Notes: generated by a model from the letters alone, not told the origin. A DNA stretch of 64,000 nucleotides from an uncultured Bacteroidota bacterium (GCA_963793485.1 CAWCAB010000002.1:332787-396786), one strand, 5' to 3'; counted from the first letter of the stretch, positions 12,516 through 59,055 are shown. A program made the numbers and translations.

Positions 12516-12529
12516 ATAACTCAATAATT

Positions 12530-13540: not shown

Positions 13541-13544
13541 CATT

Positions 13545-15517: not shown

Positions 15518-15547
15518 AATAGCATGTTTTTCAGAAACATTTAATAT

Positions 15548-16762: not shown

Positions 16763-16774
16763 TGTAAGCTGTTT

Positions 16775-17977: not shown

Positions 17978-18015
17978 TTAGCAATGCTAATTGGGATGTG
18001 CTTCTTATTACCCAA

Positions 18016-19392: not shown

Positions 19393-19407
19393 CGATGAAA
19401 TAATAAA

Positions 19408-30942: not shown

Positions 30943-32235
30943 TTAGCTGATCAGGATCTTTTGCGAATATTGAATTCCACTTCCCCGGAGGTGCAGTATG
31001 TAAATACCTGCCGGGAGAGCAGATGGTATTTTTATTTGTGTGCTTCCTTTTTCGATGCCGAGAAATCCTTCTAAACAGGTATTGCCTGATTCATCTAAAA
31101 GGCTATAAGAAGTATAATTATGATCGCCTTTGATCATAATGTGATCTTTTGCAGGGTTTGGAAATACAATCACTTTATCCCTTTCCGGGTCCTCCGGCAG
31201 GCCTGTTTCCAGGATGACCAGTGTATCCGAATAAACATCTTCTATCTGGCAGGGAAAATCTGACACCAGGGTCACTACATATGTTCCTGCCCCGGGATAT
31301 TCATGGCTTGGATTTTCGAGTGTAGAAGTATTTAAAGATCCTGAAAGGGGATCACCAAAGTTCCAGAAGTATTCTGATGCGTTTACAGAGGTGTTTATGA
31401 AGTCTGCTTTGTATGCTTCAACATTGAAGGTAAAAGAAGCCTCAACCGGATCAGGATGATAGATATTCCATTGCCCAGGGTTGTCGAGGACGGTTATGGT
31501 GGCAACTTGCTGCAGGTAAGCGGCATCATCCAGACTTAGCCCTGCAGTATATTCCAGGCCATGAGGGCTTTTATTCAGTATAGCAGCATAAAAGGTGCAT
31601 GCTGCCAGATAAGATCCGGCCAGGCTCGGATGTGATTGGTCTGCAGTATACAATTCAATAGGGTCGCCATTTGCGATGGAATTCGACCATGACATCCCCA
31701 CCGGGGAGCAAAAAGCCATATTGTCGATTGTCATTTTCATATAGGCAGACTCAAGAGAATCCTGCATATGGAAATAATCCATGAAAACCGGACTGCAATA
31801 ACCCCCTATGCACTGCTGCCCACCATTCTTCCTGCCCCAGGTCATATAAAACATCGTAGTTCCACATGGGTTATTGACACGAATAAGCTTGTTGAGCGAG
31901 TCGGCAGAAGGGAAAGTGTAGTTGTCACGATAATGAGGTATCGTTGGGAACTGGCTTTGCTCCTGAAGGATAACATAATCCCAGATTCCCTCCTTGATCA
32001 GTGCAATTGATGCGTTATTTTCAAGATGCTGTGAAAGCGAGTAGCCCCCAATAACACTCCTGTCAACATAAATTGAATCTCCCCCTGACAGGGCCAGTTG
32101 TTGTAAGATATTGGGAAGATTGTTGACCCCGGTATAGCTATTACCAAGAAAAGCCACGTTGAGCACCTGGGCACTGATAAGCGTGCTTAAAGAAATACCA
32201 AGGATTGATAAAATGATCTTCAATCGATATGGCAT
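30943..32235 (-). CDS. Secreted SGNH/DUF4886-like domain + PKD domain + T9SS sorting domain protein
   Basis: N-terminal VAFLGNSYT (SGNH block-I-like). PKD-like ...YFWNFGDPLSG...HEYPGAGTYVVTLV. C-terminus VFPNPAKDHIMIKG...AGIYILHLRGSGIQYSQKILIS. Confidence 0.55.
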   Translation of the reverse strand: MPYRLKIILSILGISLSTLISAQVLNVAFLGNSYTGVNNLPNILQQLALSGGDSIYVDRSVIGGYSLSQHLENNASIALIKEGIWDYVILQEQSQFPTIPHYRDNYTFPSADSLNKLIRVNNPCGTTMFYMTWGRKNGGQQCIGGYCSPVFMDYFHMQDSLESAYMKMTIDNMAFCSPVGMSWSNSIANGDPIELYTADQSHPSLAGSYLAACTFYAAILNKSPHGLEYTAGLSLDDAAYLQQVATITVLDNPGQWNIYHPDPVEASFTFNVEAYKADFINTSVNASEYFWNFGDPLSGSLNTSTLENPSHEYPGAGTYVVTLVSDFPCQIEDVYSDTLVILETGLPEDPERDKVIVFPNPAKDHIMIKGDHNYTSYSLLDESGNTCLEGFLGIEKGSTQIKIPSALPAGIYILHLRGSGIQYSQKILIS

Positions 32236-39953: not shown

Positions 39954-40256
39954 ATGAAATTTAAAGCCATTTTTATCATCTTTCTCCTTGCCGGAGCCAC
40001 TGTGGTCCTGTCGTGCCGCACCAGGAGGTCACCGGCAGAAAAGCGAGCATATAAGATGGAGAAAAAGATGCAAAAGGAAAATAAAAAGATGGTGGATGAA
40101 TACCTTCAACATCATTACGACATCCAGCATGTGGATACTCAAAAGATGATGAAGAAATCCCAAAAGCGGGCAAAAAAAGCGAACAGGAAGCGGGGTAACT
40201 CCTGGGTTGACCGCACCTTCAAACGAAAAAGATCTAAATCCTGCGATGGCAATTAA
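39954..40256 (+). CDS. Small highly basic lipoprotein-like ORF (100 aa)
   Basis: Signal/lipobox VVLSC followed by a Lys/Arg-rich low-complexity sequence. Its 3' end overlaps the kinase start by 11 nt. Coding status is uncertain. Confidence 0.3.
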   Translation: MKFKAIFIIFLLAGATVVLSCRTRRSPAEKRAYKMEKKMQKENKKMVDEYLQHHYDIQHVDTQKMMKKSQKRAKKANRKRGNSWVDRTFKRKRSKSCDGN

Positions 40257-43200: not shown

Positions 43201-43413
43201 AATGGCATTGGTCGGAAAAAGGCAGAGGAGCTCAGGAATTCCTCAGGGATCAAACGCAAATCCCGTGGCATGCTTATCACTCGTGAGCGACTCGAGATCC
43301 TGAACAAGCAGAATAAGGAGAAGTTTGCCGTAAATGTGATCGACCTCCATGATAAGAAAGGTGATCCCTCCGGTACCAGGGTGGAAATCAATATTCTGTA
43401 TATAGATGAATAA
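40246..43413 (+). CDS. Sensor kinase: periplasmic two-component-regulator beta-propeller repeats + Y_Y_Y domain + TM + LytS-type His_kinase/HATPase
   Basis: Repeated ...D..G.lWiGT..GLn.fd... units and a Y_Y_Y-like YAFMLENYDEEWKY. One TM helix is followed by QMNPHFIFNSLNAIQSFV (PF06580-type) and an ATPase domain (PFVENAILHG..., DNGIG...). Confidence 0.85.
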   Translation: MAIKSIYSRFFIVTFLLFSIFPCSMAQESFEVSFENFKTENIERVKGLSQNMVNTIIQDRQGYMWFGTWDGLNQYDGYDFTIYNKLDGMSDPTINSILEDDEGMIWIGTQDGLNRFDRKSLSFSVIKNIPGEKNSLSNNTINHIFQDNKDYLWISTVQGLNRFDKENQVYKRFNFNFVDVDSVRTNWINKVMQDRNGYLWIATRFGLLKFDDSTMLFTPYFHSPDDDHSISNNSINAIFEDRDGKLWIGTQDGLNLFLGESEGFKRFYHQFDNDSSLSNNQVKTIFEDSRGIFWVGTKNKLNIFDRQQGTFSHYQHSGKSTSLSSDDINCIYEDDMGSVWIGTYKGVNKVQLGLSKFNYYRRDPDDPHSLSDNVIHSIFKDSDGLIWLGTGKGVNILDRKSGRYSRLHYMIDRDTDLANLRIRCLHKDKLGNIWIATDNDGLFKYVPSTGKYSQYTSSPYDPNTLNDNNLLWVTEDHLGYIWVGSGRGVNAFHPDTMLMRSWAHDPRDPTSISNDIVWIIYEDKEHVKWFGTNNGLNRYDDESDAFISYTHDPEDVFSISANAVFGIYEDRQGNFWVGTMGGGLNHFDPIRERFLHLDEQNGLPNNVVYITLEDRNGNLWLTTNWGISKFNPASGEFVNYDIHDGLQGNEFNGGAWFHADDGEMFFGGMDGFNSFYPEEILLNEQAPRIVITDFKKLNESVKRDFVDGDSIRLNYDDNFFSIEFSALDYNNPAKNKYAFMLENYDEEWKYRDANRRIAEYTRVTPGSYVFRVIGSNNDGIWNETGTSLHIIILPPWWDTMIFRLIFGAMIFALLWSFIYWRIRMIKKKHEVEKKVLEIEKELFDVQQKALQLQMNPHFIFNSLNAIQSFVISSNTDKAIHYLSKFSQLMRLILTNSRESSIPVKDELTALKHYMDIERLRFDNKFDYTIKVDKNIDDEFMEIPPMIIQPFVENAILHGIVHSTEPGHIKLELQLQKNFIFCSIEDNGIGRKKAEELRNSSGIKRKSRGMLITRERLEILNKQNKEKFAVNVIDLHDKKGDPSGTRVEINILYIDE

Positions 43414-43513: not shown

Positions 43514-44263
43514 ATGATCAGAGGCATTATCATTGAGGATGAAAAGCACTCCCGGGAAACCCTGAGTGGCATGCTTGATCGCTATTGTAAGAATGTAAAC
43601 ATTATTGCTGAAGCAGAAAGCTACCGTGGTGGACTTGAAGCCATACGTGAACATCAGCCGGATGTGATCTTCCTGGATATACAAATGCCGGACGGAAGCG
43701 GCTTCAGGATGCTGGAGGAACTGGATAACATCAACTTCGAGATCATCTTTACAACGGCCTTTGATCAGTTTGCCATCAAGGCCATCAAATACAGTGCACT
43801 GGATTACCTGCTTAAACCCATCGATCCGGAAGAACTGGTCAGGGCTGTGAAGAAAGTCGAACAAAAGATCAGTTCTACCCAGGTGAATCAGAATATACAG
43901 GTATTGCTTGATAATATTAAATCACGGGAGGCTGAACCACATAAGATCGTACTTTCAACCTCTGAGAAGATCCACATTATTGAGACTGACCAGATCATTC
44001 GCTGTGAGAGCGATAATTACTATACCAATTTCTTCCTGTCCGACGGAAAAAAAATACTGGTGTCGAAAACCCTGAAAGATAACGAGGAACTGTTAAGTGA
44101 CCATAATTTTATCCGCCCGCACAAATCACACCTGGTGAATATAAAGTATATAAAAGGATTTCTGCGGAGCGATGGTGGATATATCGAGATGAAAGACGGG
44201 AGCAAAATTCCGGTCTCACGGCGTAAGCGTGAAAAGATCATAGAAGTGATCACACATCTGTAA
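43514..44263 (+). CDS. LytTR-family response regulator
   Basis: Receiver domain (VIFLDIQMPDGSG...YLLKP) plus a C-terminal LytTR DNA-binding domain (...IRCESDNYYTNFFL...FIRPHKSHLVNIKYIKGF...). Confidence 0.9.
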   Translation: MIRGIIIEDEKHSRETLSGMLDRYCKNVNIIAEAESYRGGLEAIREHQPDVIFLDIQMPDGSGFRMLEELDNINFEIIFTTAFDQFAIKAIKYSALDYLLKPIDPEELVRAVKKVEQKISSTQVNQNIQVLLDNIKSREAEPHKIVLSTSEKIHIIETDQIIRCESDNYYTNFFLSDGKKILVSKTLKDNEELLSDHNFIRPHKSHLVNIKYIKGFLRSDGGYIEMKDGSKIPVSRRKREKIIEVITHL

Positions 44264-44305: not shown

Positions 44306-44341
44306 ACCGTTAACTGATTGCAAACCACCGAAAACTGATTA
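44306..44341 (+). promoter_or_regulatory. Candidate LytTR box: direct repeats ACCGTTAACTGATT / ACCGAAAACTGATT with 21-bp register
   Basis: Repeats start at 44306 and 44327 and match at 12 of 14 positions. They lie 43 nt after the LytTR regulator stop and ~65 nt upstream of ORF 44406. The 12-mer ACCGTTAACTGA recurs at 54655. Confidence 0.4.
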
Positions 44342-44405: not shown

Positions 44406-44864
44406 ATGGAAGAATTTATTTACATAATTATCGGCGTGATATGGCTTGCCGCAACCGTGTACAAGGCAAGCCAGAAGAAGAAAGCAGGACCAAAGAAGCC
44501 AGCAGTCCCAGGCCCGGATGGAGAAAAGAAAGTGTCAGCTACCAGGTCACTCCTCGAACAACTGTTAGAAGGGCAAGAACTCAGGATCCCCGATCCGGAA
44601 GTTGTTGAGTTGGAACCTGAATATGATGAGCCCATGGTAGCTGAAGTGGAGGAACGCAAACGCCAGAATACCATCCAGGCAGGATACACAGGTTATGGTT
44701 ATAAAAGCCTGGAATCAGTGTCGGGTGAGGGGGTCAGTTCATTGGGAAAAATCACTTTTGAGGATATCATGCAACAGCATGAAACAAAGGTCAGGAAACC
44801 AGTGAAAATAGACCTTAGAAAGGCCATTATTTACCAGGCAATTCTTGAAAGACCTTATTCTTAA
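44406..44864 (+). CDS. Hypothetical N-terminally membrane-anchored protein (152 aa)
   Basis: One N-terminal TM helix (FIYIIIGVIWLAATVY), then a charged Pro/Glu/Lys-rich region. No family recognised. ATG 44406 is preferred over TTG 44400. Confidence 0.45.
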   Translation: MEEFIYIIIGVIWLAATVYKASQKKKAGPKKPAVPGPDGEKKVSATRSLLEQLLEGQELRIPDPEVVELEPEYDEPMVAEVEERKRQNTIQAGYTGYGYKSLESVSGEGVSSLGKITFEDIMQQHETKVRKPVKIDLRKAIIYQAILERPYS

Positions 44865-44990: not shown

Positions 44991-47900
44991 ATGTTAAGAA
45001 ATTTACTTCTAACTATTGGTATTGTACTGGCTGCCAGCTTGGTGGTATTCCCCCAATCGTCCGGTACGCTGCAGGGAAAGGTGATTGACAAGGACACCAA
45101 GGAAGAACTTCCCTTTGTTAATATCGTACTCGAGGTTGGTGGATCCCAGGTCTTTGGGGCATCCTCTGACATCGACGGGAAATATTCTATCAAACCAATC
45201 CCTCCTGGAAAATACGATGTCAGGGCTACATCCGTTGGTTACCATCCCCTTCTTATCCGGGGAATCCAGATCAACTCCAACCAGACACGCTTTTTTGATT
45301 TAGAAATGGGATCATCAGCGATCGGACTTGAAGAGGTAGTCATTGTCGACTATATAGTCCCGTTGATCGATAAAGATAAAACCGTTAGTGGCGGTACCAT
45401 GACATCGGATGAGATCAAGAAGATGCCTAACAGGTCCGTAGGTGCTATTGCCGCCACCATTGGTGGTGTATTCTCCAGAGATGGTGAAGCAGGCAACGTT
45501 CGTGGTGCCCGTGGTGATGCCACCAGGTATTATATCGACGGCATGCCCGTAATCGGGTCTCTATCTCTTCCACAATCAGCTATTGCACAGCAGTCGGTGA
45601 TCCTCGGTGGTCTGCCGGCCCAGTATGGTGATGCTACCGGTGGTGTGATCGAGGTAACCACAAGGGGCCCGTCAAGGATTTTTGGAGCCGGTGTCGAGGT
45701 CGAAACTTCTGAGTTTCTTGATCCTTTCGGATATAACCGTGTGGGATTGAACCTCAACGGACCTATTTTCAGAAGAAAAACAGATGTACCTGGTAAAAAA
45801 GGCGAATCACTACTTGGTTACTTTATCGGTGGGGATTTTACTTATCGTCAGGATGGTGCACCTATGTCAGGTGATATGTACCGTGGGACAGATGATTATA
45901 TCTCATACCTGCAACAGGATCCGCTTCGCGTATCCGGCCTTGAATCAGGTGGTACATTCCTGAACGGAGAATATACCACTATGGATGACCTTGAAAAGAT
46001 TAAAACCACATCCAACACTTCAAGGTATAATATCAACCTTACAGGTAAGATAGACGTGCGCACCGGACCTACAATCAACCTTACCTTTGGTGGTTCATAT
46101 AACTATGGCCGGGGAAATAACTTCGATTACGGAAGTTCATTGTTCAACTACGACAAAAACTCCCTGTATTACACCCAAACCTGGAGGGTGTTTGGCCGCT
46201 TCACACAACGATTCCAGAACGACCCACAAAAAAACTCAAAGGTTAAAAACGTATATTATTCAATACAAGCTGATTATCAAAGTTTTAGCGGATCAACGCA
46301 TGATCCTGACCATAAGGAAGACGTTTTTAAATATGGCTACCTGGGTTCTTTTACATCCCATCTGGCCCAAAACTATACCCTTACTTCCGACACCATCGGT
46401 GGTGAATATTACCAGGATGTATATGTAATGGATAACTATTTTGATACTCTGTTCACTTTTGCTCCCGGTAACCTAAACCCATATGTAACCCAGCATACAC
46501 AGACTTATTATGATCTGTATCCGAATCCTAACGGAAACTGGAGAAATGCTGACCAGGTACAATTAGGTGGCGGTCTTATCAATGGACAGGGACCTCCTAA
46601 CGTTTATGGTATGTTTGCACTCCCGGGTGCTAACCAGTCAGGATATTCAGAATACAACAATTCACAGATTGCTGTGAATGCTACCGGATCTATGGACATC
46701 GGCAACCATGAGTTGAAGTTCGGGATACAATATGAACAAAGGAAGGATGCAGGCTATGCTGTTGGCCCCACAGGACTTTGGACACTGATGGGTGGATTAA
46801 CAAACTTCCATATTCAGGAACTTGATGTTGACAACCCTGACTTTATTTACATTGATGGCGTTTTCCAGGATACCGTTGAGTATCACAGGAAATATGATGA
46901 AGCTTCCCAGCGCGTATTCGATGCGAATCTGAGGAAGAAACTCGGTCTGTCAGTTTCAGGTACAGATTATATAAACATCCAGTCATATGACTATAATACC
47001 AACAGCATACAGTATTTCGATGAAAACAATGTTTCTCATACTGTCTCCACTGGTGAAGAGTTGTTCGATCTTGGTATGTTCAGCCCTGATGAATTGCTGA
47101 ACGACGGTAACTGGTATGTAACTGCTATTGGTTATGATTACACAGGAAACAAACTAAAGAGCAAACCTACTTTCGCTGATTTTTACAATCAGACCGATGA
47201 TGAAGGCATCTATACCCGTGAGGTTGGTGCATTTGAACCCATCTATATGGCAGGATTCATCCAGGATAAGTTTGCTTTCAAGGATCTGATCTTCAACCTT
47301 GGTGTTCGTGTTGACCGTTTCGATGCGAACCAGATGGTTCTAAATGATCCCTTTCTCCTCTACCCGGCTAAAACTGCATCTGAGGTGAATAGTGTAGGCG
47401 GACAGGCTGTCACACATCCCGGAACCATTGGATCTGATTATATTGTTTATGTTGACAATACTGACAATCCTACAGCAATTACCGGTTATCGTGATGAGAG
47501 CACATGGTATAACGCGGAAGGTACTGAGATTCAAGATCCGAATGTCTTGAACGTAGGATCAGGAGTTTCTCCTTATCTTCAAGACCCAAGCCTCACCAGG
47601 CCTCCGCTGGAATCATTTACTGATTATGATCCACAGATCAATGTGATGCCCAGGATTTCATTCTCATTCCCAATCTCTGATGTGGCCCTGTTCTTTGCTC
47701 ACTATGACGTGCTCACACAACGTCCGACATCGAACCTGCGTTCCGATCCAAGGGTTTATTACTATTTTGACAATATTGGTGGAACCATTAATAACCCGAG
47801 TCTGGACCCATCCAAAACCATTGACTATGAGCTTGGTTTCCAGCAGAAGCTGTCACCAACTTCATCACTGAAGCTGGTTGCCTTCTACAGGGAGATGAGG

Positions 47901-48704
47901 GATATGATTCAGATATACCGTTTCACAGGTGCTTATCCTAAAGATTATACATCTTATAATAATATTGACTTTGGTACTGTTAAAGGTTTTACTCTCCAGT
48001 ATGACCTGAGAAGGACCAACAATGCCAGGGTAAGTGCATATTACACACTACAATTTGCAAATGGTACTGGTTCAAGTACAGTAACTGCTGCCTCACTTGT
48101 AGCTGCCGGACTGCCAAACCTGAGAACTACCTTCCCACTCGCATGGGACCGTCGTCACAGTTTTAATGTCTTCTTCGACTACAGGTTTGGAAAAGGAACC
48201 GAATATAACGGACCAAACATCAAACGTGAAAAGAAAGGCAAAGCGCCGCTTCAGCTGCTTAATAATACCGGTATTTCAATGACACTGACCGGTGGTTCAG
48301 GTACGCCTTATACACGCTCACGTAACATTTACAGCCAGTTAAGTGGTGGAACCAGACTTCTGCAGGGTACCTATTTTGGATCACGCCTCCCATGGCAGTT
48401 CCGCATGGATATCCGTATTGACAAGGACATTGCACTTAAAATGGGTAAAGGTGAAAGACCAGGGAACCTGAACGTTTACTTTTCCATTAATAATGTCTTG
48501 AATACGAAGAATGTGATGAATGTTTATCCTGCCACTGGTAACCCTGATGATGATGGATACCTGGCCGCTCCTGAATGGCAACGTGAGATCAACGAGCAAC
48601 TTGATCCTCAATCATTCCGCGACTTGTATGCTATCTTCATAAACCGTCCATGGTATTACAGCAGCCCCAGGACGATTCGCTTTGGATTAATCTTTAACTT
48701 TTAA
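44991..48704 (+). CDS. Giant outer-membrane barrel: CarbopepD_reg-like N-terminal domain + TonB-dependent-receptor plug/barrel-like protein (1,237 aa)
   Basis: Signal peptide. GTLQGKVIDKDTKEELPFVNIVL...GKYSIKPIPPGKYDVRATSVGY (carboxypeptidase-regulatory-like fold). Plug-like ...NVRGARGDATRYYIDGMPV.... Long beta-rich body ending ...IRFGLIFNF (aromatic OMP terminus). Confidence 0.78.
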   Translation: MLRNLLLTIGIVLAASLVVFPQSSGTLQGKVIDKDTKEELPFVNIVLEVGGSQVFGASSDIDGKYSIKPIPPGKYDVRATSVGYHPLLIRGIQINSNQTRFFDLEMGSSAIGLEEVVIVDYIVPLIDKDKTVSGGTMTSDEIKKMPNRSVGAIAATIGGVFSRDGEAGNVRGARGDATRYYIDGMPVIGSLSLPQSAIAQQSVILGGLPAQYGDATGGVIEVTTRGPSRIFGAGVEVETSEFLDPFGYNRVGLNLNGPIFRRKTDVPGKKGESLLGYFIGGDFTYRQDGAPMSGDMYRGTDDYISYLQQDPLRVSGLESGGTFLNGEYTTMDDLEKIKTTSNTSRYNINLTGKIDVRTGPTINLTFGGSYNYGRGNNFDYGSSLFNYDKNSLYYTQTWRVFGRFTQRFQNDPQKNSKVKNVYYSIQADYQSFSGSTHDPDHKEDVFKYGYLGSFTSHLAQNYTLTSDTIGGEYYQDVYVMDNYFDTLFTFAPGNLNPYVTQHTQTYYDLYPNPNGNWRNADQVQLGGGLINGQGPPNVYGMFALPGANQSGYSEYNNSQIAVNATGSMDIGNHELKFGIQYEQRKDAGYAVGPTGLWTLMGGLTNFHIQELDVDNPDFIYIDGVFQDTVEYHRKYDEASQRVFDANLRKKLGLSVSGTDYINIQSYDYNTNSIQYFDENNVSHTVSTGEELFDLGMFSPDELLNDGNWYVTAIGYDYTGNKLKSKPTFADFYNQTDDEGIYTREVGAFEPIYMAGFIQDKFAFKDLIFNLGVRVDRFDANQMVLNDPFLLYPAKTASEVNSVGGQAVTHPGTIGSDYIVYVDNTDNPTAITGYRDESTWYNAEGTEIQDPNVLNVGSGVSPYLQDPSLTRPPLESFTDYDPQINVMPRISFSFPISDVALFFAHYDVLTQRPTSNLRSDPRVYYYFDNIGGTINNPSLDPSKTIDYELGFQQKLSPTSSLKLVAFYREMRDMIQIYRFTGAYPKDYTSYNNIDFGTVKGFTLQYDLRRTNNARVSAYYTLQFANGTGSSTVTAASLVAAGLPNLRTTFPLAWDRRHSFNVFFDYRFGKGTEYNGPNIKREKKGKAPLQLLNNTGISMTLTGGSGTPYTRSRNIYSQLSGGTRLLQGTYFGSRLPWQFRMDIRIDKDIALKMGKGERPGNLNVYFSINNVLNTKNVMNVYPATGNPDDDGYLAAPEWQREINEQLDPQSFRDLYAIFINRPWYYSSPRTIRFGLIFNF

Positions 48705-48722
48705 TCCCCGGAAGCAATCAGG

Positions 48723-51700
48723 ATGAACGCCTACATTATGAAAACAAAAAATAATACAGCAATCATGAAAAATATATTTCGCCATTTATTTATTGCATTA
48801 CTCTGCTTAGCGCTGGTTCAGGGCGCATATGCCGAGGAATATCAGGGAGATGGATCAACAGGCCAGAAGACCATTAAAGAGAGTGCTGCTGGTTGTGCTG
48901 CAGCATCTGGCTTTCGCTACCTTGATGTAAACAATGTACGCGCGAGGATCAACACTGGTGGTGACATGTGGTGGGATCTTCCCGGTGGTATCGGAGCCCA
49001 GTATTTTATTCCAAAAGCAGGGACCGCGACCTCACTGTTCTCCGGGTCTTTATGGATCGGTGGACTTGATATCAATAACCAGCTGAAACTTGCCGCCGTG
49101 CGTTATCGCCAGGTAGGTAATGACTACTGGCCGGGACCATTGACCATTGATGGAACAGCTTCTGTTGATGAATCTACCTGTGCCAAATACGATAAGCATT
49201 TCCTGGTTACGCGCGCTCAGGTTGATGAATTCCTGGGATGGTGGAACAGCGAAGACAGGGCAACTGAATACCCTGATTACGCTATTCCGCAAGCGATCCT
49301 TGATTATCCTGCACACGGTGATGTTGCAAAAAACCAGAGTTATTACCTGGCTCCTTTCCGTGATGTTGATGGTGATGGCGATTATAACCCTAACCAGGGT
49401 GACTATCCTTATTATGATATTACCAACGAACTTTGCCCCCTGAATTATGCCGGGGATCCAAACTATGTTCCTCAGGAAACAATGGAGGAAGAGTTAATGG
49501 GTACAGTAAAGGGTAGTATTCTTGTTGACCAGGTGCTGAAAGGCGACCAGACCCTGTGGTGGATCTTTAATGATAAAGGAAATTATCACTCAGAAACACC
49601 GGTGCGTCCATCGGATTTGAAATCCGTGCCCAGGCTTTCGGATTCGCAACAAACGATGAGATCAACAACATGACCTTTTACACATATGAAATCATTAACC
49701 GTTCTACCTTTACGCTAACCAATACTTTTTTCAGCCCATGGGTTGACACCGACCTTGGTTATGCATGGGATGATTATGTAGGTTGTGATGTTGGCAGGGG
49801 ACTTGGTTACTGTTACAATGGTACTTCAGTTGATGGTTCAGGCGAAGTTGAAGCCTATGGCGACCAACCGCCGGCTATTGGTGTTGACTTTTTCCAGGGA
49901 CCTTATATTGACCCTGATTTACGTGACAACCCTAAATTTACAGGCGACTGTTCTCTCATCAATTCACCATACCCATGGGATCAGATGGCAATCAATGGTG
50001 TGAACTTCGGAAACGTTATCGTGGATGATGAACGTTTTGGTATGCGCCGTTTTGTATACCACAATAACTCAGGAGGCCCGCAGGGTGACCCGGGTATCGC
50101 TCCCGAATATTATAATTACCTCCGTGGATTCTGGAAAGACAATACCAGGATGCTTTATGGTGGTAATGCCCACTTCAACTCAGGTGCCGTAGGCCCTGAG
50201 TGTGACTTCATGTTCCCGGGTGATTCCGACCCATGTAACTGGGGTACAAGAGGTGCTCCACCAAATGGTGGTTATAACCAAAATGGCCTTTACTGGACAG
50301 AAGAAACAGCCGACAACAATCCTTATGACAGGCGATTCATGCAGTCTGCAGGACCATTTACCCTCGAACCTGGGGCAGTCAACTATATCACAGTTGGTAT
50401 CCCCTGGGCACGTGCTACCTCAGGTGGCCCATGGGCTTCTGTTGAACTGCTGCGCGTTGTAGATGACAAATGCCAGAAACTTTTCGACAACTGTTTTAAA
50501 GTACTTGACGGACCTGATGCTCCGGACCTCAGCATTGTTGAAATGGATAAAGAACTTATTTTCTACATCTCTAATTCAAAGACATCCAACAACTACCGGG
50601 AAAAGTATGATGAATATGACAATACCATTACTCAACCATTACCCGGTGGTGAAGATGGTGAACGTTCCGATTCAACCTATGTTTTTGAAGGTTACCAGAT
50701 TTATCAGCTGGCTAATGCCTCTGTTACCCTGGAAAGTAAAGACAATGCAGACCTTGTAAGGCTCGTGGCTCAGTATGATGTCAAGAACGGTGTGGGAATG
50801 CTTGTTAATTACTACTATGATAAAGCAATTGGTGGTAACGTACCTGTTGTTGAAGTTGAAGGTGGCGACAATGGTGTTGTTCACTCATTCAAAGTGACTG
50901 AAGATCAGTTTGGAACTTCCAATCGTCAGCTTACCAACTTCAAACAATATTATTTTACTGTCGTTGCGTATGCCTACAATGAATACATGCCTTACAGCCA
51001 GGAACCTGGTATTTTGAATGGCCTTCTCGGACAAATGAAACCTTACCTGGCCGGCCGTAGGAACATCAAGACTTACAGTGCTATTCCTCATCCTACAGTA
51101 AACGGAACTGTGATTAACTCCGAATATGGTGAAGGACCACAGGTGACCAGGATAAAAGGTAACGGTAATGGTGGAATGCTGATCGAACTCACAAATGAAA
51201 CAGTTGAGGAGATTCTCAGCAAGCCCCCGGCTGATTCAGTCAATAAGATGGGCGGTCCTGATTACCCGATCGCCTATAACGCCACATATGAGTATGGTCG
51301 CGGGCCATTGAATGTGAAAGTAATAGATCCTCTGAATGTTATCAATGCAGAGTATTTGCTCGAGTTTACAAATGTTAGCTATATTGATGACAACGACTCG
51401 ATCAATATCGATACAGCATCCTGGATACTTACAAATACTTTAACTGGAAAAGTTTATACAGCCGACAAAGGCACACAGCATAATTATGAACAATTATTCC
51501 TCGACCTGGGACTTTCAGTACAGATTGAACAACCAGCAAATCCCGGTGACAGCGCATCTTCAAATAACGGACTGATCACTTCCTACTCTGCTTATCAAGA
51601 CAGTTCACAAAGATGGATGGGCGGTGTACAGGATATTGATCTTCCGGGAAGTTCTGCTGACTGGATCCGTTCAGGAACATATCAAGATCAGGATGATCCA

Positions 51701-52960
51701 GCCAATCTCAATGATTGGGATGTACCGGATCGTGCATATGACCCTGATGCTGTTTATGAAAAGATAGAATCAGGAACATGGGCTCCTTACATGATGACAG
51801 CCTTTAATGCTCAAAATGACGCAGGGCCGGCATTCGATCGTGTTTCCAAAGAAGCTTATCCAATGGCGGATCTTTCCAGCGTGGATATCGTATTTACATC
51901 TGACAAATCGAAATGGACACGTTCAGTAGTTATTGAAATGTGTGCTGACAATGTCCTTTCTGAAGGCGGCATTGATCGTTTTAACATCAGGGCAGGGCAG
52001 TCTGTTGATAAAGATGGCAACCCTGCACCTGTTGGCAGTGGGGTCAGCAGTGATCCTAATGATCCAAACTATATCGGAGAAACAGGAATGGGGTGGTTCC
52101 CGGGTTATGCCATTAACCTTGAAACAGGTGAACGACTGAATATTATGTTCGGTGAAAACTCATACCTGGTTGGGGAAAATGGTCGTGACATGATATTTAA
52201 TCCATCTTCCAATCAATATGATTTCTTAGGAACACCATTGTTTGGAGGTATGCACTATGTATATGTGATGAATCATACTACACGTAAGGTGCAAAACGAT
52301 GATAATATTTATGAATTCCCTGCTTATGACGCAGGCTTACACCTGAATACATTGTTTGACACACTCACTTCAAACATCCTTTGGTTAGTGAGATATCAGC
52401 CAATGATCTTTTCTACACCTATGTGGGTTGGTATGCCATTATCCGTTGACGATGAAGAATGGTTACCTGAAGGCAACGACTGGAAGTTGAGTATCAGGAT
52501 GGCTAAACCTTATAAGAGGTATTTCTCACTACCGGCAGCTCCTGAGTGTGCCAGTGAGGATACAACAGATATGGACTGGCCAACATATACTTTCAAAACT
52601 GAAGGCGTAGCAACCACACAATACAGTGCTTCTAAGGCGGAAACAGATCTTGACCTAATTAATGTAGTGCCGAATCCGTATTATGCATACGATTCATATG
52701 AGAATAATGCACTTGATAACAGGATCAAGATCACAAACCTGCCAGAGCAGACCACTGTTACCATTTATAATATCAATGGTACACTTGTTCGCCAGCTAAC
52801 TAAAGACTCACAGGAGACCTATATTGACTGGGATCTCAAGAACTTTGCTGGAGTTCCGGTCGCCGGAGGTATTTACATCATACATGTTAAAACAAATGCA
52901 GGCGAAAAAGTGCTGAAATGGTTTGGTATCTTACGTCCACCTGATCTGAACACATTCTAA
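48723..52960 (+). CDS. Giant (~1,410 aa) secreted protein with T9SS-CTD-like C-terminus, paralogue 1; apparent 1-nt deletion near 49599-49600
   Basis: ORFs 48723..49673 and 49670..52960 align end to end with the single 1,392-aa ORF 54814..58992. Across the junction the alternative frame reads GASIGFEIRAQAFGFATNDEINNMTFYTYE versus GASIGFEIRAQAFGFSTNDEINNMTFYTYE in the paralogue. The start could be 48723, 48738 or 48765. Confidence 0.7.
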
Positions 52961-52963
52961 TGC

Positions 52964-54064
52964 ATGTTTGAGAAAATGAAATTAATAACACTAAATATAG
53001 TAAGTATGAAGAGTTTTTATAAATACTTAATTACACTCGTCATAGTCGGCATGTTGATCATACCGGAGAGCAGCTTGTATGCTGGGAACAAAGACCGTTC
53101 GGGACAGGCTGGAGCCACTGAGTTGTTAATAAATCCATGGGCCAGAAGTTCTGGATGGGGCAATGTCTCAACCGCCAATGTTAATGGGCTTGAATCAATG
53201 TTTATTAATGTTGCAGGACTTGCTTTTACAAACAAGACTCAACTGGTGTTTTCTCATACCACATACCTTAAGGGTTCCGACATTAATATGTTTGCGTTCG
53301 GCTTTTCTCAACGAATTGGCGATGCCGGGGTTATTGGTTTAAGCGTGGTATCGATGAACTTTGGTGAAATCGAGGTAACCACAACAGATTCCCCGGAAGG
53401 TGGCCGCGGTACCTTTAAACCAAACCTGATGAATATTGCCATAGCTTATTCAAAAGCCTTTTCAAACAGTATTTATGGGGGTATTACCGTCAAGATTATA
53501 TCCGAGACGATTGCCGATGCAAGCGCCCAGGGGATCGCCATTGATGCCGGTATCCAATATGTTACCGGTGAGATGGATCAGATCAAGTTTGGGATTGCCC
53601 TGAAGAATATAGGGCCAAGGATGAGCTTTTCCGGCGATGGACTGTTGCGTACAGTCTTCCTCCCTGAACAGGAAAATGCATACTCTATGAGTGTGCCATC
53701 TGAATCATTCGAACTCCCGACAGCATTAGATATTGGTGCTGCATATGACTTCTATATTGGTGACTGGAACAGGATAACCCTTGCTTTCAACTTCAGGTCA
53801 AACTCCTTCGGAAAAGACCAGTTCATTGGTGGTTTGGAATATGCACTGAAAACTTATCTCATGCTTCGCGTTGGATATACTTACGAGCAAGGTATCACTA
53901 ATAAGGCAGACAGGACAACTGTTTTCACGGGACCCAGCGCCGGTTTAACAGTGGCCATTCCTCTGAACAAGGAAAAAGGTTCTTCAATCGATATTGATTA
54001 CTCATACCGTGCAACCGATCCGTTCTCAGGAACACATAGTATCGGGGCACGAGTGGTATTCTAG
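52964..54064 (+). CDS. PorV/PorQ-like outer-membrane beta-barrel protein
   Basis: Signal peptide, then GQAGATELLINPWARSSGWGNVSTANVNGLESMFINVAGLA, which resembles the conserved N-terminal motif of PorV-family barrels. Alternating beta-strand pattern and an aromatic C-terminal residue (...GARVVF). It starts 3 nt after the preceding gene. The family call is from memory. Confidence 0.6.
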   Translation: MFEKMKLITLNIVSMKSFYKYLITLVIVGMLIIPESSLYAGNKDRSGQAGATELLINPWARSSGWGNVSTANVNGLESMFINVAGLAFTNKTQLVFSHTTYLKGSDINMFAFGFSQRIGDAGVIGLSVVSMNFGEIEVTTTDSPEGGRGTFKPNLMNIAIAYSKAFSNSIYGGITVKIISETIADASAQGIAIDAGIQYVTGEMDQIKFGIALKNIGPRMSFSGDGLLRTVFLPEQENAYSMSVPSESFELPTALDIGAAYDFYIGDWNRITLAFNFRSNSFGKDQFIGGLEYALKTYLMLRVGYTYEQGITNKADRTTVFTGPSAGLTVAIPLNKEKGSSIDIDYSYRATDPFSGTHSIGARVVF

Positions 54065-54100
54065 GCCACTTTAATTCAGACTTTTAATTATTCAAATAAA

Positions 54101-54136
54101 TGAAAGACCCTGTTGCAGGGTCTTTCATTCTTTTTC
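54101..54136 (+). terminator. Rho-independent terminator
   Basis: TGAAAGACCCTG-ttg-CAGGGTCTTTCA is a perfect 12-bp stem followed by TTCTTTTTC. It lies 37 nt after the PorV-like stop. Confidence 0.75.
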
Positions 54137-54154
54137 AAAACAAAGACAAGTTCT

Positions 54155-54628
54155 ATGGATGAAGTAAAATATTATACAAAGGAGGGCTTTCAGAAACTGA
54201 AAGAAGAACTTGAACATCTTGAATCAGTACAACGCCCGGAAATATCCAGGCAGATAGCAGAAGCTCGCGACAAAGGTGATCTATCCGAAAACGCCGAATA
54301 CGATGCTGCAAAAAATGCCCAGGGTATGCTCGAGCTGCAAATAGCAAAACTGCAGGCCGAAATCCGCAATGCACGTATCATCGATGAATCAAAGATGGAT
54401 ACCTCGAAAGTACTCATCCTCTCAGTAGTAAAGATCAAAAACCTGAAGAACAATGCTGTAATGACATATACGCTTGTTCCGGAGAACGAGGCGGACCTCA
54501 AGTCCGGAAAGATCTCGGTGAGCTCACCCATCTCCAAAGGTCTTCTGGGGAAAAAAGTTGGAGATACTGCAGAAATCCAGGTGCCTGCCGGCAAAGTAAC
54601 CTTTGAGATTATTGAAATCTCAAGATAA
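54155..54628 (+). CDS. greA: Transcription elongation factor GreA
   Basis: MDEVKYYTKEGFQKLKEELEHLESVQRPEISRQIAEARDKGDLSENAEYDAAK... is the canonical GreA coiled-coil with the acidic tip, followed by a C-terminal FKBP-like domain. Confidence 0.9.
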   Translation: MDEVKYYTKEGFQKLKEELEHLESVQRPEISRQIAEARDKGDLSENAEYDAAKNAQGMLELQIAKLQAEIRNARIIDESKMDTSKVLILSVVKIKNLKNNAVMTYTLVPENEADLKSGKISVSSPISKGLLGKKVGDTAEIQVPAGKVTFEIIEISR

Positions 54629-54654
54629 GCCTTCCCGAATCCTTTCCTGCAAAA

Positions 54655-54689
54655 ACCGTTAACTGAACGGACATCGCCGTTTACTTTTC
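54655..54689 (+). promoter_or_regulatory. Candidate LytTR box: direct repeats ACCGTTAACTGAAC / GCCGTTTACTTTTC with 21-bp register
   Basis: Repeats start at 54655 and 54676. The first 12 nt are identical to 44306-44317. The box lies ~125 nt upstream of the paralogue-2 start (54814). Confidence 0.35.
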
Positions 54690-54813
54690 CATGCTTGAAA
54701 TCAAGCGTGGTAAGTTGTACTTTTTATCTCCAGAATACAAAATGAGGTAAAACCATATCGTTCTTTTCATCTTCTCATTTTGTGCATAGTGTGCCGAACC
54801 AAAACCACCTAAC

Positions 54814-57800
54814 ATGAAAAAACGCCTACCCTATGCACTCGTCATTACATTATTACTCGTCCCATCTTATAACTGCCTCGCTAAAAAATACCGTGGCAAT
54901 AAGCAATCTTCGCATACTACGGAGATAAAGCAGAATGCAGCTGGTTGCTCAGCAGCATCAGGCTTCCGCTATCTAACCGTTAACAATGTGCGGGCACGGA
55001 TAAATACCGGCGGGGATATGTGGTGGGATCTCACCAACTTTTCGCAATATTTTATCCCGGCCAACGGATCCGCAACATCACTCTACTCAGGATCACTGTG
55101 GATCGGTGGATTGGATGTCAACGACCAATTAAAGCTTGCAGCCCTGCGATTCAGAGGCAGCGGGAATGATTATTGGCCCGGCCCGCTCACCATCGATGGT
55201 ACGGCATCAGTTGATGAGGTAACATGTGCTGAATATGATAAGCACTTCCTGATCACAAGGGCTGAGATCGATGAGTACCTGGGATGGTGGAATAGCGAAG
55301 ACAGAGCAAGCCAGTATCCTGATTATTCTATCCCGCAGTCCATACAGGATTACCCTGCTCATGGAGATGTTGCTAAGAATCAGAGCTATTACCTCGCCCC
55401 TTTCCGCGATGTGAATGGTGATGGCGACTATGATCCAGGTTCAGGTGATTATCCATACTATGATATAACGAACGAGCTCTGCCCATTGAACTTTGCCGGT
55501 GACCCTAACTATGTGCCCCAGCGAACAATGGAAGAAATACAGGAAGGAACAGTGCATGGCAGCATCCTGGTCGACCAGGTGCTAAAGGGAGACCAGACCC
55601 TCTGGTGGATATTCAACGACAAGGGAAACTTCCACTCGGAAACACAGGGCGCTTCAATAGGATTTGAGATCAGGGCGCAGGCATTTGGCTTTTCTACCAA
55701 TGATGAGATCAACAATATGACATTTTACACCTATGAGATCATCAACAGGTCAACGTTCACCTTGCAAAATACCTTTTTCAGTCCCTGGGTGGATACTGAC
55801 CTGGGGTTTTCTGATGATGATTACGTGGGCTGTGACGTGGCCAGGGGTTTGGGATACTGTTACAACGGAACCTCTGTTGACGGAAGCTCACAACCCGAAG
55901 CTTATGGAGACCAACCGCCTGCCATCGGTGTTGACTTCTTCCAGGGCCCATATATCGACCCTGACGGAAGGGACAACCCTGAATTTACCGGTGATTGCTC
56001 CATCATTAACTCACCATTTCAATGGGATCAGATGGCTATTAATGGGGTGAATTTCGGAAACCAGATCGTCGATGACGAAAGATTCGGCATGAGGCGTTTT
56101 GTATATCATAATAATGATAACAGCCCACAGGGCGACCCGAGAATAGCCCCGGAATACTACAATTACCTTCGTGGGTTCTGGCGCGACAATACCCGTATGC
56201 TATATGGCGGAAATGCCCATTTTAACTCCGGGGCAGTGGGGCCTGAATGCGACTTTATGTTTCCCGGTGACTCTGATCCCTGTAATTGGGGTACACGGGG
56301 CATCCCTCCCAACGGGGGTTATAACCAGAATGGATTGTACTGGACCGAGGAAACTGCTGACAATAATCCCTTTGACAGGCGCTTTATGCAGTCGGCTGGG
56401 CCATTTACCCTTGAACCCGGTGCTGTCAATTATATTACTGTAGGTATTCCATGGGCCCGGGCCACCTCAGGTGGTCCCTGGGCTTCCGTGGAACTACTTC
56501 GGGTGGTTGATGACAAATGCCAGAAGCTTTTCGATAATTGCTTCAAGGTATTGGATGGGCCTGACGCACCCGACATGGCCATAGCTGAGTTCGACAAGGA
56601 GTTGATATTCTATATTAGCAACTCGCAAATATCAAACAACTATCTGGAAGAATATGCCGAGTATGATAATACCATTACACAACCTCATCCGGTCGACTCC
56701 ACACAAAGAAGTGATTCCTTATACCGCTTCGAAGGATACCAGGTCTATCAGCTATCCGATGCTACGGTAACCCTTGAAAGCAAAGATAACCCTGACCAGG
56801 TACGCCTGGTAGCTCAATTTGATATCAAGAACGGTGTAGGCATGCTGGTGAACTACTACTATAACAAGGACATACAAGCGAATGTGCCCATCGTAGAAGT
56901 TGAAGGAGGAGATAATGGTATCAGGCATTCTTTTGCAATCACTGAGGATGCTTTCGGAACTTCAAACCGACAGCTTACCAATTTCAAACAATACTATTAT
57001 ACCGTTGTAGCTTACTCTTATAATGAGTACATGCCCTATAGCCAGGAACCCGGCATATTGAATGGCCTGCTTGGTCAGAAAAAGCCCTACCTGGCGGGAA
57101 GAAGGAATATACGCACCTATACCGCAATACCACACCCAAGCGTAAACGGAACTGTGCTAAACTCCGTTTACGGCCTGGGTCCTCAGCTTAGCAGGCTTGA
57201 AGGCAACGGCAATGGGGGTATGATACTGGAACTTACAAGTGAAAGTATTGAAGAGATCCTGGGTAAGCCACCGGCAAATACGGTCCATGACCTTGGCAGC
57301 CCGGATTATCCCATAGCTTATGAAGCCACATACGAATACGGTTTGGGGCCCTTAAACGTGAAAGTGATAGATCCCCTGAATGTAACCAACGCAGATTACC
57401 GGCTTGAATTTACAGAAGTGGTATATTCAGATGAGGAAAACATCATTATAGACTCGGCACAATGGGTACTGACAAATATCACCACAGGGGATGTATATCA
57501 TTCCGACAAGGACATCAACTATAACAATGAGCAATTGTTCCTTGACCTGGGCCTGTCGGTTCAAATAAATCAGCCTCTCTATCCCGGCGATAGTCTTGCG
57601 GTGAACAATGGCTTGATCACTTCCTACACCTCATATCAAGACAGCTCACACAGGTGGGTAGGTGGTGTAGAAGATATTGACCTGCCGGGAAGTTCTGCTG
57701 ACTGGATCCGCTCCGGCACTTACCAGGATCAGGATGATCCGACCAATCTGAACGACTGGGATGTTCCGGATCAAACCTTTGACCCGGAATCTGTTTATGA

Positions 57801-58992
57801 AAAAATCGCTTCCGGAACATGGGCACCCTATATGATGACAGCATATAATGGCCAGAATAATGCAGGCCCTTCATATAACCGCAATTCCAAATTAGACTAT
57901 CCTATGGCCGATCTTGCCAGCGTAGATATAGTATTTACGGCCGATAAATCGAAATGGACACGCGCACTTGTGCTGGAGATGTGCCCTGAAGACATTCTTG
58001 CTGAAGGCAATGCCTGGCGTTTCGATCTAAGGGCAGCACAATCTGTAGACAAGGATGGCAACCCGGCACCTCACGGCAGTGGCTCCAGCGATAATCCGAA
58101 TGATCCAAACTATATAGGAGAATCAGGAATGGGATGGTTTCCCGGCTATGCCATTAATCTTGAAACAGGTGAACGTCTGAATATTATGTTTGGGGAGAAT
58201 TCATTCCTGGTTGGCGAAAATGGCAGGGATATGCTATTCAATCCCTCACCCAATCAATATGACTTCGCCGGAAACCCATTGTTTGGAGGCATGCACTATG
58301 TATATGTCATTGATCATACGGTTCGTCAGCCTCAAAACGACACCAACATATACGTGTTTCCTGCATATGATGCCGGTTTGCAGCTGTATACTTTGTATGA
58401 CACTCTCAAAACCCATGCTCTATGGCCGGTCAGGTACAAGCCATTGCTATTATCTGCAACTATGTGGGTTGGAATGCCTCTGTCGGTAGAAGATGAAGAG
58501 TGGCTGCCGGAGGGGAACGACTGGAAGTTAAGCATACGTATGTCGAAGCCATACCGCAGGTATTACTCCAGGCCAGAAGGGCCCGAATATGCCGGTACAG
58601 GAACCTCCTGGCCTGCCTATGGATTCAAGACTGATGGGGTTGCTACTACTACTTATAGTGAAAGTAAAGCAGAAACAGATCTCGACCTGATCAATGTTGT
58701 TCCTAACCCATATTACGCATATGATAGTTATGAAAACAACGCACTCGATAACAGGATCAAGATCACTAACCTACCTGAGCAGGCTACAGTAACCATTTAC
58801 AATATTAATGGAACGCTGGTCAGACAGCTAACAAAAGAATCTAATGACACCTACCTCGACTGGGACCTGAAGAATTTTGCAGGGGTTCAGATCGCAGGAG
58901 GCATATACATCATTCATGTAAATACCAATGTAGGCGAAAGGGTGCTGAAATGGTTCGGTATCTTGCGGCCACCTGACCTGAACACATTTTAG
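54814..58992 (+). CDS. Giant (1,392 aa) secreted protein with T9SS-CTD-like C-terminus, paralogue 2 (intact)
   Basis: Signal/lipobox-like N-terminus (LLLVPSYNC). Colinear with 48723..52960 along its whole length. C-terminus VVPNPYYAYDSYENNALDNRIKITNLPEQATVTIYNINGTLVRQL...GGIYIIHVNTNVGERVLKWFGILRPPDLNTF. Confidence 0.75.
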   Translation: MKKRLPYALVITLLLVPSYNCLAKKYRGNKQSSHTTEIKQNAAGCSAASGFRYLTVNNVRARINTGGDMWWDLTNFSQYFIPANGSATSLYSGSLWIGGLDVNDQLKLAALRFRGSGNDYWPGPLTIDGTASVDEVTCAEYDKHFLITRAEIDEYLGWWNSEDRASQYPDYSIPQSIQDYPAHGDVAKNQSYYLAPFRDVNGDGDYDPGSGDYPYYDITNELCPLNFAGDPNYVPQRTMEEIQEGTVHGSILVDQVLKGDQTLWWIFNDKGNFHSETQGASIGFEIRAQAFGFSTNDEINNMTFYTYEIINRSTFTLQNTFFSPWVDTDLGFSDDDYVGCDVARGLGYCYNGTSVDGSSQPEAYGDQPPAIGVDFFQGPYIDPDGRDNPEFTGDCSIINSPFQWDQMAINGVNFGNQIVDDERFGMRRFVYHNNDNSPQGDPRIAPEYYNYLRGFWRDNTRMLYGGNAHFNSGAVGPECDFMFPGDSDPCNWGTRGIPPNGGYNQNGLYWTEETADNNPFDRRFMQSAGPFTLEPGAVNYITVGIPWARATSGGPWASVELLRVVDDKCQKLFDNCFKVLDGPDAPDMAIAEFDKELIFYISNSQISNNYLEEYAEYDNTITQPHPVDSTQRSDSLYRFEGYQVYQLSDATVTLESKDNPDQVRLVAQFDIKNGVGMLVNYYYNKDIQANVPIVEVEGGDNGIRHSFAITEDAFGTSNRQLTNFKQYYYTVVAYSYNEYMPYSQEPGILNGLLGQKKPYLAGRRNIRTYTAIPHPSVNGTVLNSVYGLGPQLSRLEGNGNGGMILELTSESIEEILGKPPANTVHDLGSPDYPIAYEATYEYGLGPLNVKVIDPLNVTNADYRLEFTEVVYSDEENIIIDSAQWVLTNITTGDVYHSDKDINYNNEQLFLDLGLSVQINQPLYPGDSLAVNNGLITSYTSYQDSSHRWVGGVEDIDLPGSSADWIRSGTYQDQDDPTNLNDWDVPDQTFDPESVYEKIASGTWAPYMMTAYNGQNNAGPSYNRNSKLDYPMADLASVDIVFTADKSKWTRALVLEMCPEDILAEGNAWRFDLRAAQSVDKDGNPAPHGSGSSDNPNDPNYIGESGMGWFPGYAINLETGERLNIMFGENSFLVGENGRDMLFNPSPNQYDFAGNPLFGGMHYVYVIDHTVRQPQNDTNIYVFPAYDAGLQLYTLYDTLKTHALWPVRYKPLLLSATMWVGMPLSVEDEEWLPEGNDWKLSIRMSKPYRRYYSRPEGPEYAGTGTSWPAYGFKTDGVATTTYSESKAETDLDLINVVPNPYYAYDSYENNALDNRIKITNLPEQATVTIYNINGTLVRQLTKESNDTYLDWDLKNFAGVQIAGGIYIIHVNTNVGERVLKWFGILRPPDLNTF

Positions 58993-59015: not shown

Positions 59016-59055
59016 GATACTGTCCGGCTGCTGTACCGGGCAGTATCTTTTTATT
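59016..59055 (+). terminator. Rho-independent terminator
   Basis: GATACTGTCCGG-ctgctgta-CCGGGCAGTATC pairs at 11 of 12 positions and is followed by TTTTTATT. It lies 24 nt after the paralogue-2 stop. Confidence 0.7.

Follow-up and report, generated by a model that had tools for sequence, protein, structure and literature searches.

A conserved three-gene outer-membrane module of Bacteroidota joining a TonB-dependent transporter, a giant predicted type IX secretion cargo and a PorV-like barrel

In a 64,000-nucleotide stretch of the genome of an uncultured Bacteroidota bacterium (CAWCAB010000002.1:332787-396786, referred to here as the window), three tightly packed genes on the plus strand encode a 1237-aa TonB-dependent transporter (TBDT; 44991..48704), a giant protein of about 1,400 aa (48723..52960) and a 366-aa barrel of the PorV/PorQ family (52964..54064). 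Only 18 nt lie between the transporter stop and the giant gene, and 3 nt between the giant and the PorV-like gene, so that the compact, co-directional arrangement described in an earlier note on this stretch agrees with our open reading frame (ORF) map. A terminator-like hairpin with a 14-bp stem and a T-run marks the end of the operon (54099..54129, plus strand, as are all features below unless stated). Beyond it are greA (54155-54628, with its true ATG at 54155) and a second, intact giant gene of 1392 aa (54814..58992), which sits between greA and a HIT gene and is followed by another terminator-like hairpin (12-bp stem and T-run, 59016..59047). The strong terminator, greA and second paralogue of the earlier description were thus all located, and the peptide strings quoted there (NNVRARINTGGDMWWDL, the DGDGDYNP/DYDP loops and the tail KWFGILRPPDLNTF) were found in the giant translations. 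Upstream, in the same orientation, are a LytS-type sensor histidine kinase with a propeller (40207..43413) and a LytTR-family response regulator (43514..44263), both borne out by their Pfam domains. Here we report that the three genes form a real, deeply conserved and unstudied outer-membrane module of Bacteroidota. Its parts are of known kinds; their combination is without description in the literature searched.

A genome scan for relatives of the giant protein confirmed them at no fewer than 586 of the 599 matching stretches listed, which places them in at least 586 species genomes, and the best 80 loci were kept as the basis for all counts out of 80 given below. By their labels, nearly all of these 80 are uncultured Bacteroidales, Lentimicrobiaceae or Bacteroidota metagenome-assembled genomes (MAGs); named carriers of the giant also include Flavobacteriales (among them the cultured Halocola ammonii), Crocinitomicaceae, Chitinophagaceae and Sphingobacteriales. 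The trio, whose synteny elsewhere had been left as a question by the earlier note, is adjacent and co-directional in 75 of the 80 loci. In the remaining five, the contig is truncated (L042, L058), the giant is an extra solo copy (L063, L070) or the locus has the two-giant layout of the window (L003). Next comes greA in 74 loci, and the HIT gene is found in 73; two Flavobacteriales genomes likewise maintain the five-gene order of transporter, giant, PorV-like gene, greA and HIT. The gap between transporter and giant, 18 nt in the window, has a median of ~58 nt across loci, and within the same loci the two proteins show similar identity to their window counterparts, a pattern of parallel conservation. 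The transporter, giant and PorV-like genes are co-inherited across classes of Bacteroidota. The giant family itself is large, with at least 6759 matches in a word-indexed database and 7150 clusters at 50% identity (2037 of those at E<=1e-30), and the best 120 database matches are 58-88% identical over 1400 aa. Our literature searches, which covered PorV2/PorU2, PorV-like proteins together with TBDTs, and the annotation names, returned no description of the trio or of the giant family.

The first protein of the trio had been described as a 1,237-aa barrel resembling CarbopepD_reg-type TonB-dependent receptors, and this is confirmed by Pfam matches to CarbopepD_reg_2 (1.5e-15), CarboxypepD_reg (4.2e-12) and Plug (3.2e-06), the last of these, PF07715, scoring 28.1 bits against a cut-off of 23.9. 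Its parts follow the order signal peptide, CarboxypepD_reg N-terminal extension, plug, and a large barrel with a C-terminal FNF. On inspection, a loosely conserved, TonB-box-like hydrophobic strand, EEVVIVDY, lies between the extension and the plug. Twenty orthologues, those of Flavobacteriales included, keep the plug motifs and the C-terminal F; several orthologues carry a precomputed PF00593 match, and their public names are generic only. Judged by its domains, the protein is a true plug-containing TBDT with an Oar-type N-terminal domain. It gave no match at E<=0.01 to the SusC/RagA models (TIGR04056/04057) nor to any other NCBIfam equivalog. As the earlier note had it, a SusD-like lipoprotein is missing: Pfam found no SusD-family gene among the window neighbours or in four related loci (L001, L002, L083 and L084). 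A SusC/SusD polysaccharide utilization locus (PUL) was accordingly rejected, since the barrel lacks the SusC signature and the loci lack SusD.

The giant gene of the trio (copy 1), which is by position the orthologue of the lone copy in other genomes, is deposited as two ORFs, 48723-49673 (316 aa) and 49670-52960 (1096 aa), the cause being a 1-nt deletion relative to copy 2 at ~49599/49600. Inserting one base yields an uninterrupted protein of 1412 aa that is 79% identical to copy 2, with the last 14 residues identical between the two. The length of ~1,410 aa first proposed thus holds after repair, but the single ORF does not, the frameshift having been overlooked. The public record carries the same break (P0039, a 1096-aa fragment on the same 1.23-Mb contig). 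Because both giant copies are intact in L003, the closest relative, we read the break as a fault of assembly or else as a very recent pseudogene or lesion, and for the same reason do not favour a programmed frameshift.

Several features of the giant point to export by the T9SS (type IX secretion system). Both copies, like the family consensus, have a hydrophobic N-terminus, which on inspection corresponds to a Sec signal peptide. At the opposite end, a C-terminal domain (CTD) of the T9SS sorting type (~52697-52921 in copy 1, ~58729-58950 in copy 2) scores 31.8 bits in copy 1 and 27.1 bits in copy 2 with TIGR04183 (cut-off 23), as the earlier note had suspected. With the PF18962 Por_Secre_tail model (cut-off 27) the two copies reach only 24.7 and 21.6 bits, and we therefore consider the domain a divergent type-A member. 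Three ordinary T9SS cargos in the window score 31-57 bits as generic CTDs against 22-25 for the giants, which suggests that the organism has a working T9SS and that the giants carry a special CTD variant. The PorZ model NF052228 matches the CTD region only (6.8e-12 and 3.6e-10 in the window, 3.6e-08 in Halocola), with giant and orthologue CTDs at 32-45 bits where the cut-off of the model is 260. A profile of the giant family searched against all PDB sequences returned a single match, the PorZ CTD (5m11, residues 663-747). By these profile comparisons, the giant CTD is closer to that of PorZ than to generic CTDs. After the CTD comes a further segment, KWFGxxRPxDLxxF, which is near-invariant across the family and bears out the conserved extra tail of the first description; across Bacteroidales and Flavobacteriales, little or no variation is seen at its K, W, F, G, R, L and last F, and in copy 1 it ends in GILRPPDLNTF, running to 52957.

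The body of the giant, some 1,300 aa, is without a close structural relative. Pfam and NCBIfam found nothing outside the CTD in the window giants, and Pfam searches of 33 diverse family members gave only CTD or FlgD_ig matches, apart from one weak GH65N match (E 0.1) among the diverse members. A PDB sequence search with the giant itself returned no match. Two AlphaFold2 models were examined. The first, of residues 42-1241, has a pLDDT of 72.9, with the C-terminal 440 residues at ~90, and this 1200-aa model has no Foldseek match in the PDB at E<0.001. The second, of residues 24-800 and built on a deeper alignment of 129 sequences, reaches a pLDDT of 88.1 and a pTM of 0.84; the modelled N-terminal half is almost wholly beta and without an (alpha/alpha)6 catalytic barrel. 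Its best Foldseek matches in the PDB, with TM-scores of 0.15-0.26, are N-terminal beta-supersandwich regions, namely those of a GH15-like dextran dextrinase (E 2e-5, TM-score 0.25) and of GH94, GH116, GH63 and GH65 enzymes. Among viral structures the sole match is a generic FN3 domain (TM-score 0.09), and neither model gave a gingipain-like match in Foldseek. The modelled likeness to glycosidase sandwiches is a weak lead towards carbohydrate binding and nothing more. Many D, E, H, R, W and C residues are invariant in the family, which fits a constrained binding or catalytic surface. The model-based and structural searches that the earlier note had called for on the giant thus yielded no family beyond the CTD and only sandwich matches of low TM-score. 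That the giant falls outside characterised enzyme and adhesin families, on which that note had made its reading depend, agrees with the Pfam, NCBIfam and PDB profile searches, in which only the CTD was matched; membership in a known enzyme or adhesin family was rejected on these outcomes together with those of Foldseek.

The third gene is, as first described, a PorV-like barrel, and its product passes the PorV/PorQ family model NF033709 at 163.7 bits (cut-off 90; orthologues 137-154), with 37.9 bits to the Pfam PorV model. A PDB sequence search matched it only to the PorV of F. johnsoniae (6h3i_F, E 2.5e-8). The equivalog models all fail: PorV, NF033710, at 91.2 bits (cut-off 250; orthologues 63-80); PorQ, NF033711, at 81.1 bits (cut-off 220; orthologues 64-66); and PorV2, NF052325, at 46.3 bits (cut-off 325; orthologues 43). 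This failure is common to orthologues from other Bacteroidales and from Flavobacteriales, and the orthologues score only 22-25 bits with the PorP/SprF model TIGR03519 (cut-off 90.55). From these scores, the protein is a barrel of the PorV/PorQ family distinct from PorV, PorQ and PorV2. The objection that it might be just the housekeeping porV of the organism is thus addressed only indirectly, by the equivalog cut-offs that the window protein and its orthologues fail.

Extra copies of the giant occur in several lineages. A second copy stands between greA and the HIT gene in the window and in L003, and directly 3' of the PorV-like gene in L067, L068, L080 and L081 (~13400-17440), in every case alongside a single transporter and a single PorV-like gene. 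Since the second copy occupies different positions in different lineages, the giant has been duplicated independently two times or more, and copy 2 of the window is a lineage-specific duplicate. Solo giant paralogues without an adjacent transporter or PorV-like gene occur in L063 and L070; L063 belongs to the same MAG as the complete trio L052, and in L070 a propeller kinase lies directly upstream of the solo giant. Many giant representatives (for example P0150, P0183 and P0215) align only from query residue ~215 or ~380, which suggests a subfamily with a different or missing N-terminal module, with a Sphingobacteriales MAG as its named example.

The module also appears to be under specific control. 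The kinase upstream of it matches Reg_prop (3.2e-64, in 10 stretches, forming its periplasmic propellers), Y_Y_Y (2.9e-16), His_kinase (8.4e-23) and HATPase domains, and the regulator matches Response_reg (1.8e-22) and LytTR (1.4e-19). LytTR regulators bind 9-bp repeats with a 12-bp spacer, a period of 21 nt (PMC2766830). Between the regulator stop and the first operon gene we found the direct repeats ACCGTTAACTGAT and ACCGAAAACTGAT, spaced exactly 21 nt (site A, 44306..44339), a putative LytTR binding site at the operon promoter. A second putative site, ACCGTTAACTGAA and GCCGTTTACTTTT with the same spacing (site B, 54655..54688), lies 158 nt upstream of giant copy 2, and its second repeat overlaps a weak hairpin (54664-54683). 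Sites A and B are the only ACCGWWWACTGAT pairs with a 21-nt period in the 64-kb window. In related loci totalling 1.61 Mb, both strands included, there are 17 repeat pairs, of which 15 lie less than 900 nt upstream of the transporter on the coding strand, one is the triple repeat 5' of the second giant copy in L003 (L003 7810-7864) and one is elsewhere. The kinase and regulator stand directly upstream of the transporter in 23 of the 80 loci, and 13 of these 23 have the repeat element at the equivalent place. No alternative periodic repeat was found in the regulator-positive loci that lack the motif. The palindrome CGTTAAC was considered as a regulatory motif and dropped, as it is not conserved across loci and was superseded by the 21-nt-period CCGNNNACT repeat. 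Because the repeats are position-specific and have the LytTR period, the module, the duplicated giant included, is in these lineages very probably a regulon of the adjacent two-component system. On this sequence evidence, the module is probably induced by the neighbouring system through putative LytTR sites in many lineages, that of the window among them. The LytS/LytTR link drawn earlier is therefore strengthened by a conserved 21-nt cis-element at both module promoters, which is new here, and weakened by the adjacency of the pair in just 23 of 80 loci.

How might these parts work together? PorZ and PorU retain their CTDs, bound to PorQ and PorV, respectively, and a role in shielding CTDs from cleavage has been proposed for cognate PorV-like barrels (PMC10202324; PMC12365241). 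By analogy, the T9SS would export the giant with its CTD retained rather than cleaved by PorU, and the giant would be docked on its own private barrel; that it is a barrel-anchored T9SS cargo we think somewhat more probable than the contrary. The fuller model extends this to a surface complex, controlled by the two-component system, in which the docked giant serves the TBDT, and we give it a probability of roughly 0.4. The T9SS would carry the ~150-kDa, Sec-exported giant across the outer membrane; uncleaved, its CTD and tail would stay bound to the dedicated PorV/PorQ-like barrel, so anchoring it on the surface without a lipid or an anionic lipopolysaccharide anchor. There, beside or over the TBDT, it would capture or process a large extracellular substrate, the product of which the TBDT would import using TonB energy. 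The propeller-LytS kinase would sense periplasmic products, upon which the LytTR regulator would induce the operon. That the giant would feed the TBDT is suggested by their tight linkage, by parallel conservation with a complete TBDT and by inducible control. The substrate may be a glycan, as suggested by the beta-supersandwich domain and by a propeller sensor like those of hybrid two-component systems; in Bacteroides hybrid two-component systems, Reg_prop/Y_Y_Y sensors bind glycan fragments. The net function would be that of a SusD-free, T9SS-dependent counterpart of the SusC/SusD pair.

Several observations weigh against this model. The two-component system is adjacent in no more than the 23 loci mentioned, and only 13 of those have the repeat element. 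The neighbourhood is of a housekeeping kind (greA, HIT, purF-like and AdoHcyase genes), unlike that of typical nutrient-specific PULs, for which the 58-88% identity of the best 120 giants would also be unusual conservation. No catalytic motif was identified in the giant, and the clue to a substrate is limited to a fold likeness of low TM-score (0.15-0.26). Retention of the CTD is argued by analogy only, contact between giant, barrel and TBDT is a prediction, and co-inheritance of the TBDT with the giant and PorV-like genes is no proof of a single complex.

Some of these same points fit a different role, in which the trio would be an accessory or alternative T9SS sub-complex for cargo attachment or surface-coat assembly rather than for uptake, the giant acting like PorZ or PorU, seated on its PorQ/PorV-like partner, and the TBDT-like barrel as a counterpart of PorF. 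The specifically PorZ-like CTD and the nearly equal scores of the PorV-like barrel against PorV and PorQ speak for it, and the very high conservation at a fixed housekeeping locus across classes would fit core machinery. In addition, the T9SS of P. gingivalis includes the TBDT-like PorF, a component reported to be plug-less, and in C. hutchinsonii a TBDT co-purifies with PorV (PMC8564354). However, the giant has no similarity to Peptidase_C25, to the PorU model or to the body of PorZ, and in the module transporter the plug is complete and a TonB-box-like motif is present, whereas PorF is reported to be plug-less (PMC8564354). Control by a dedicated two-component system and the repeated duplication of the giant would better suit a conditional cargo system, and the named matches (MAGs and Halocola ammonii) include no model T9SS organism, although no search was aimed at those. 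We therefore consider such a sub-complex unlikely. A PorU-PorV operon in the strict sense was rejected, the giant being without a Peptidase_C25 or PorU match in Pfam and NCBIfam and without a structural match. A published account of the Bacteroidota BAM machinery (BamG/BamH) proved unrelated.

Fast evolution and repetitive sequence are usual in adhesins and S-layer proteins. That the giant is such a structural surface protein (an adhesin, coat or S-layer-like component) held by the PorV-like barrel, with the TBDT merely co-inherited and transporting independently, is accordingly improbable, given that its best matches keep such high identity over 1400 aa, that many of its D, E, H, R and W residues are invariant and that it is non-repetitive. 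Nor does the idea account well for the very short gap between transporter and giant, or for a TBDT linked in 75 of 80 loci and diverging in step with the giant. It draws on the model of the giant as mostly beta-sandwich with FN3/Ig-like domains, on the lack of a catalytic motif, and on the dedicated barrel that accompanies this T9SS cargo, like the PorP/SprF partners of type-B CTD adhesins (PMC9143113; PMC10202324). Finally, it is very doubtful that the TBDT acts in export, helping the giant or another factor to cross or assemble as Oar does for PopC in Myxococcus, because the Oar-type architecture of extension, plug and barrel that it shares is the commonest of Bacteroidetes TBDTs and not specific to export (PMC6434023), and the giant already carries a T9SS signal above the TIGR04183 cut-off.

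The model of a docked giant serving a TBDT can be placed against the systems that it most resembles. Like PorZ with PorQ and PorU with PorV in P. gingivalis, it combines a large T9SS-exported protein with a PorV/PorQ-family barrel, the retention here being by analogy, and the adjacency of the giant and PorV-like genes recalls that of porU and porV. The giant body, however, has no likeness to the PorZ propellers or to the PorU C25 peptidase, the barrel falls short of the PorQ and PorV equivalog cut-offs, and the module adds a TBDT gene and a conserved C-terminal tail. With SusC/SusD systems such as RagA/RagB it shares an Oar/SusC-type TBDT with a CarboxypepD_reg extension beside a partner that would be surface-exposed, as well as, in many lineages, control by a propeller and Y_Y_Y sensor. 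In contrast to those systems, the partner is a predicted T9SS cargo that would be anchored by a barrel and not by a lipid, SusD and the SusC/RagA signature are missing, and the genes occupy a conserved core locus rather than a variable PUL.

SprB and SprF likewise place a specific cargo beside a dedicated PorV-like barrel that is thought to anchor it; SprB is a type-B CTD cargo, whereas the CTD of the giant is type A by TIGR04183, its barrel is of the PorV/PorQ and not the PorP/SprF family, and a TBDT is included. PorF (PG0534) and CHU_1606 are, like the module transporter, TBDT-like outer-membrane proteins linked functionally or physically to the T9SS or PorV, but by their descriptions (~91 kDa, with PorF reported plug-less) they are set apart from a plug-containing protein of 1237 aa. 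Oar of Myxococcus xanthus has the same CarboxypepD_reg extension, plug and 22-strand-type barrel, yet belongs to a different phylum; an export role of the module transporter is unsupported, and its architecture is generic among Bacteroidetes TBDTs.

Two small genes lie close to the module. A 152-aa single-pass membrane protein (44406..44864) is probably encoded by the first operon gene in Bacteroidales lineages: in many Bacteroidales loci its gene is the first after the LytTR site, and tblastn places homologues of ~155 aa upstream of the transporter in many loci. Its N-terminal transmembrane helix and C-terminal motif RKAIIYQAILERPYS, joined by a low-complexity P/E/K linker, are kept in L001 and L004. 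The layout recalls TonB, yet no TonB_C match was found, nor any other Pfam or NCBIfam match. The AT-rich 126-nt gap 5' of the transporter ATG contains four GTTAA pentamers (at 44871, 44882, 44904 and 44937), with spacings of 11, 22 and 33 nt, that is, in helical phasing. A sigma-70 promoter scan was set aside, with 41 sites against 35.6 expected (no enrichment) and a model inappropriate for Bacteroidota. Further upstream, a 100-aa ORF with a signal peptide, rich in K, R, E and Q (39954..40256), overlaps the TTG start of the kinase, which is doubtful for that reason. Similar ORFs stand upstream of the transporter or of the two-component system in L001 (5282-5623), L083 (5670-5975) and L084 (5735-6055), a position kept from Bacteroidales to Flavobacteriales, and model searches found no credible family match for the ~100-aa protein.

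Elsewhere in the window, a 622-aa protein (3984-5852) has domains like those of the multihaem cytochromes MtrC/MtrF together with a strong T9SS CTD (49.7 bits), and by these domains would be a cytochrome that the T9SS delivers to the outer surface. Two ordinary T9SS cargos are encoded on the minus strand at 27426-28469 and 30943-32235, one with Receptor L and CTD domains and one with DUF4886, PKD and CTD domains, from which we conclude that the genome has a standard set of T9SS cargos with canonical CTDs. A stretch of ~12 kb (8000-20000) has a GC content of 0.32-0.37 against 0.44-0.49 in its flanks and encodes a beta-lactamase-like protein, an S41 peptidase, a PD40 protein, a redoxin and a sigma-54 two-component system; it may be a horizontally acquired island.

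The giant family is large and highly conserved, yet has no Pfam domain apart from the CTD, no solved relative and no specific name, its members being called in public records only "T9SS type A sorting domain-containing protein". Our findings raise the tentative possibility of a phylum-wide, undescribed machine in which a TBDT is served by a ~150-kDa T9SS protein docked in a PorV/PorQ-family barrel through its CTD and tail. Such a machine could be a third coupling of surface capture to TonB import, one dependent on the T9SS, beside the SusCD-type and BtuBG-type lipoprotein systems, a proposal that we hold just as cautiously. The conserved putative LytTR operator offers an immediate experimental handle, and Halocola ammonii a cultured carrier. 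If the parts do form one complex, T9SS and TonB-dependent transport would be mechanistically linked, and the retention of specific cargos by cognate PorV-like barrels would extend past PorZ/PorQ and the type-B CTD proteins. The module would then represent a core surface function of many Bacteroidota from environmental, rumen and marine settings, one that model organisms may not show.

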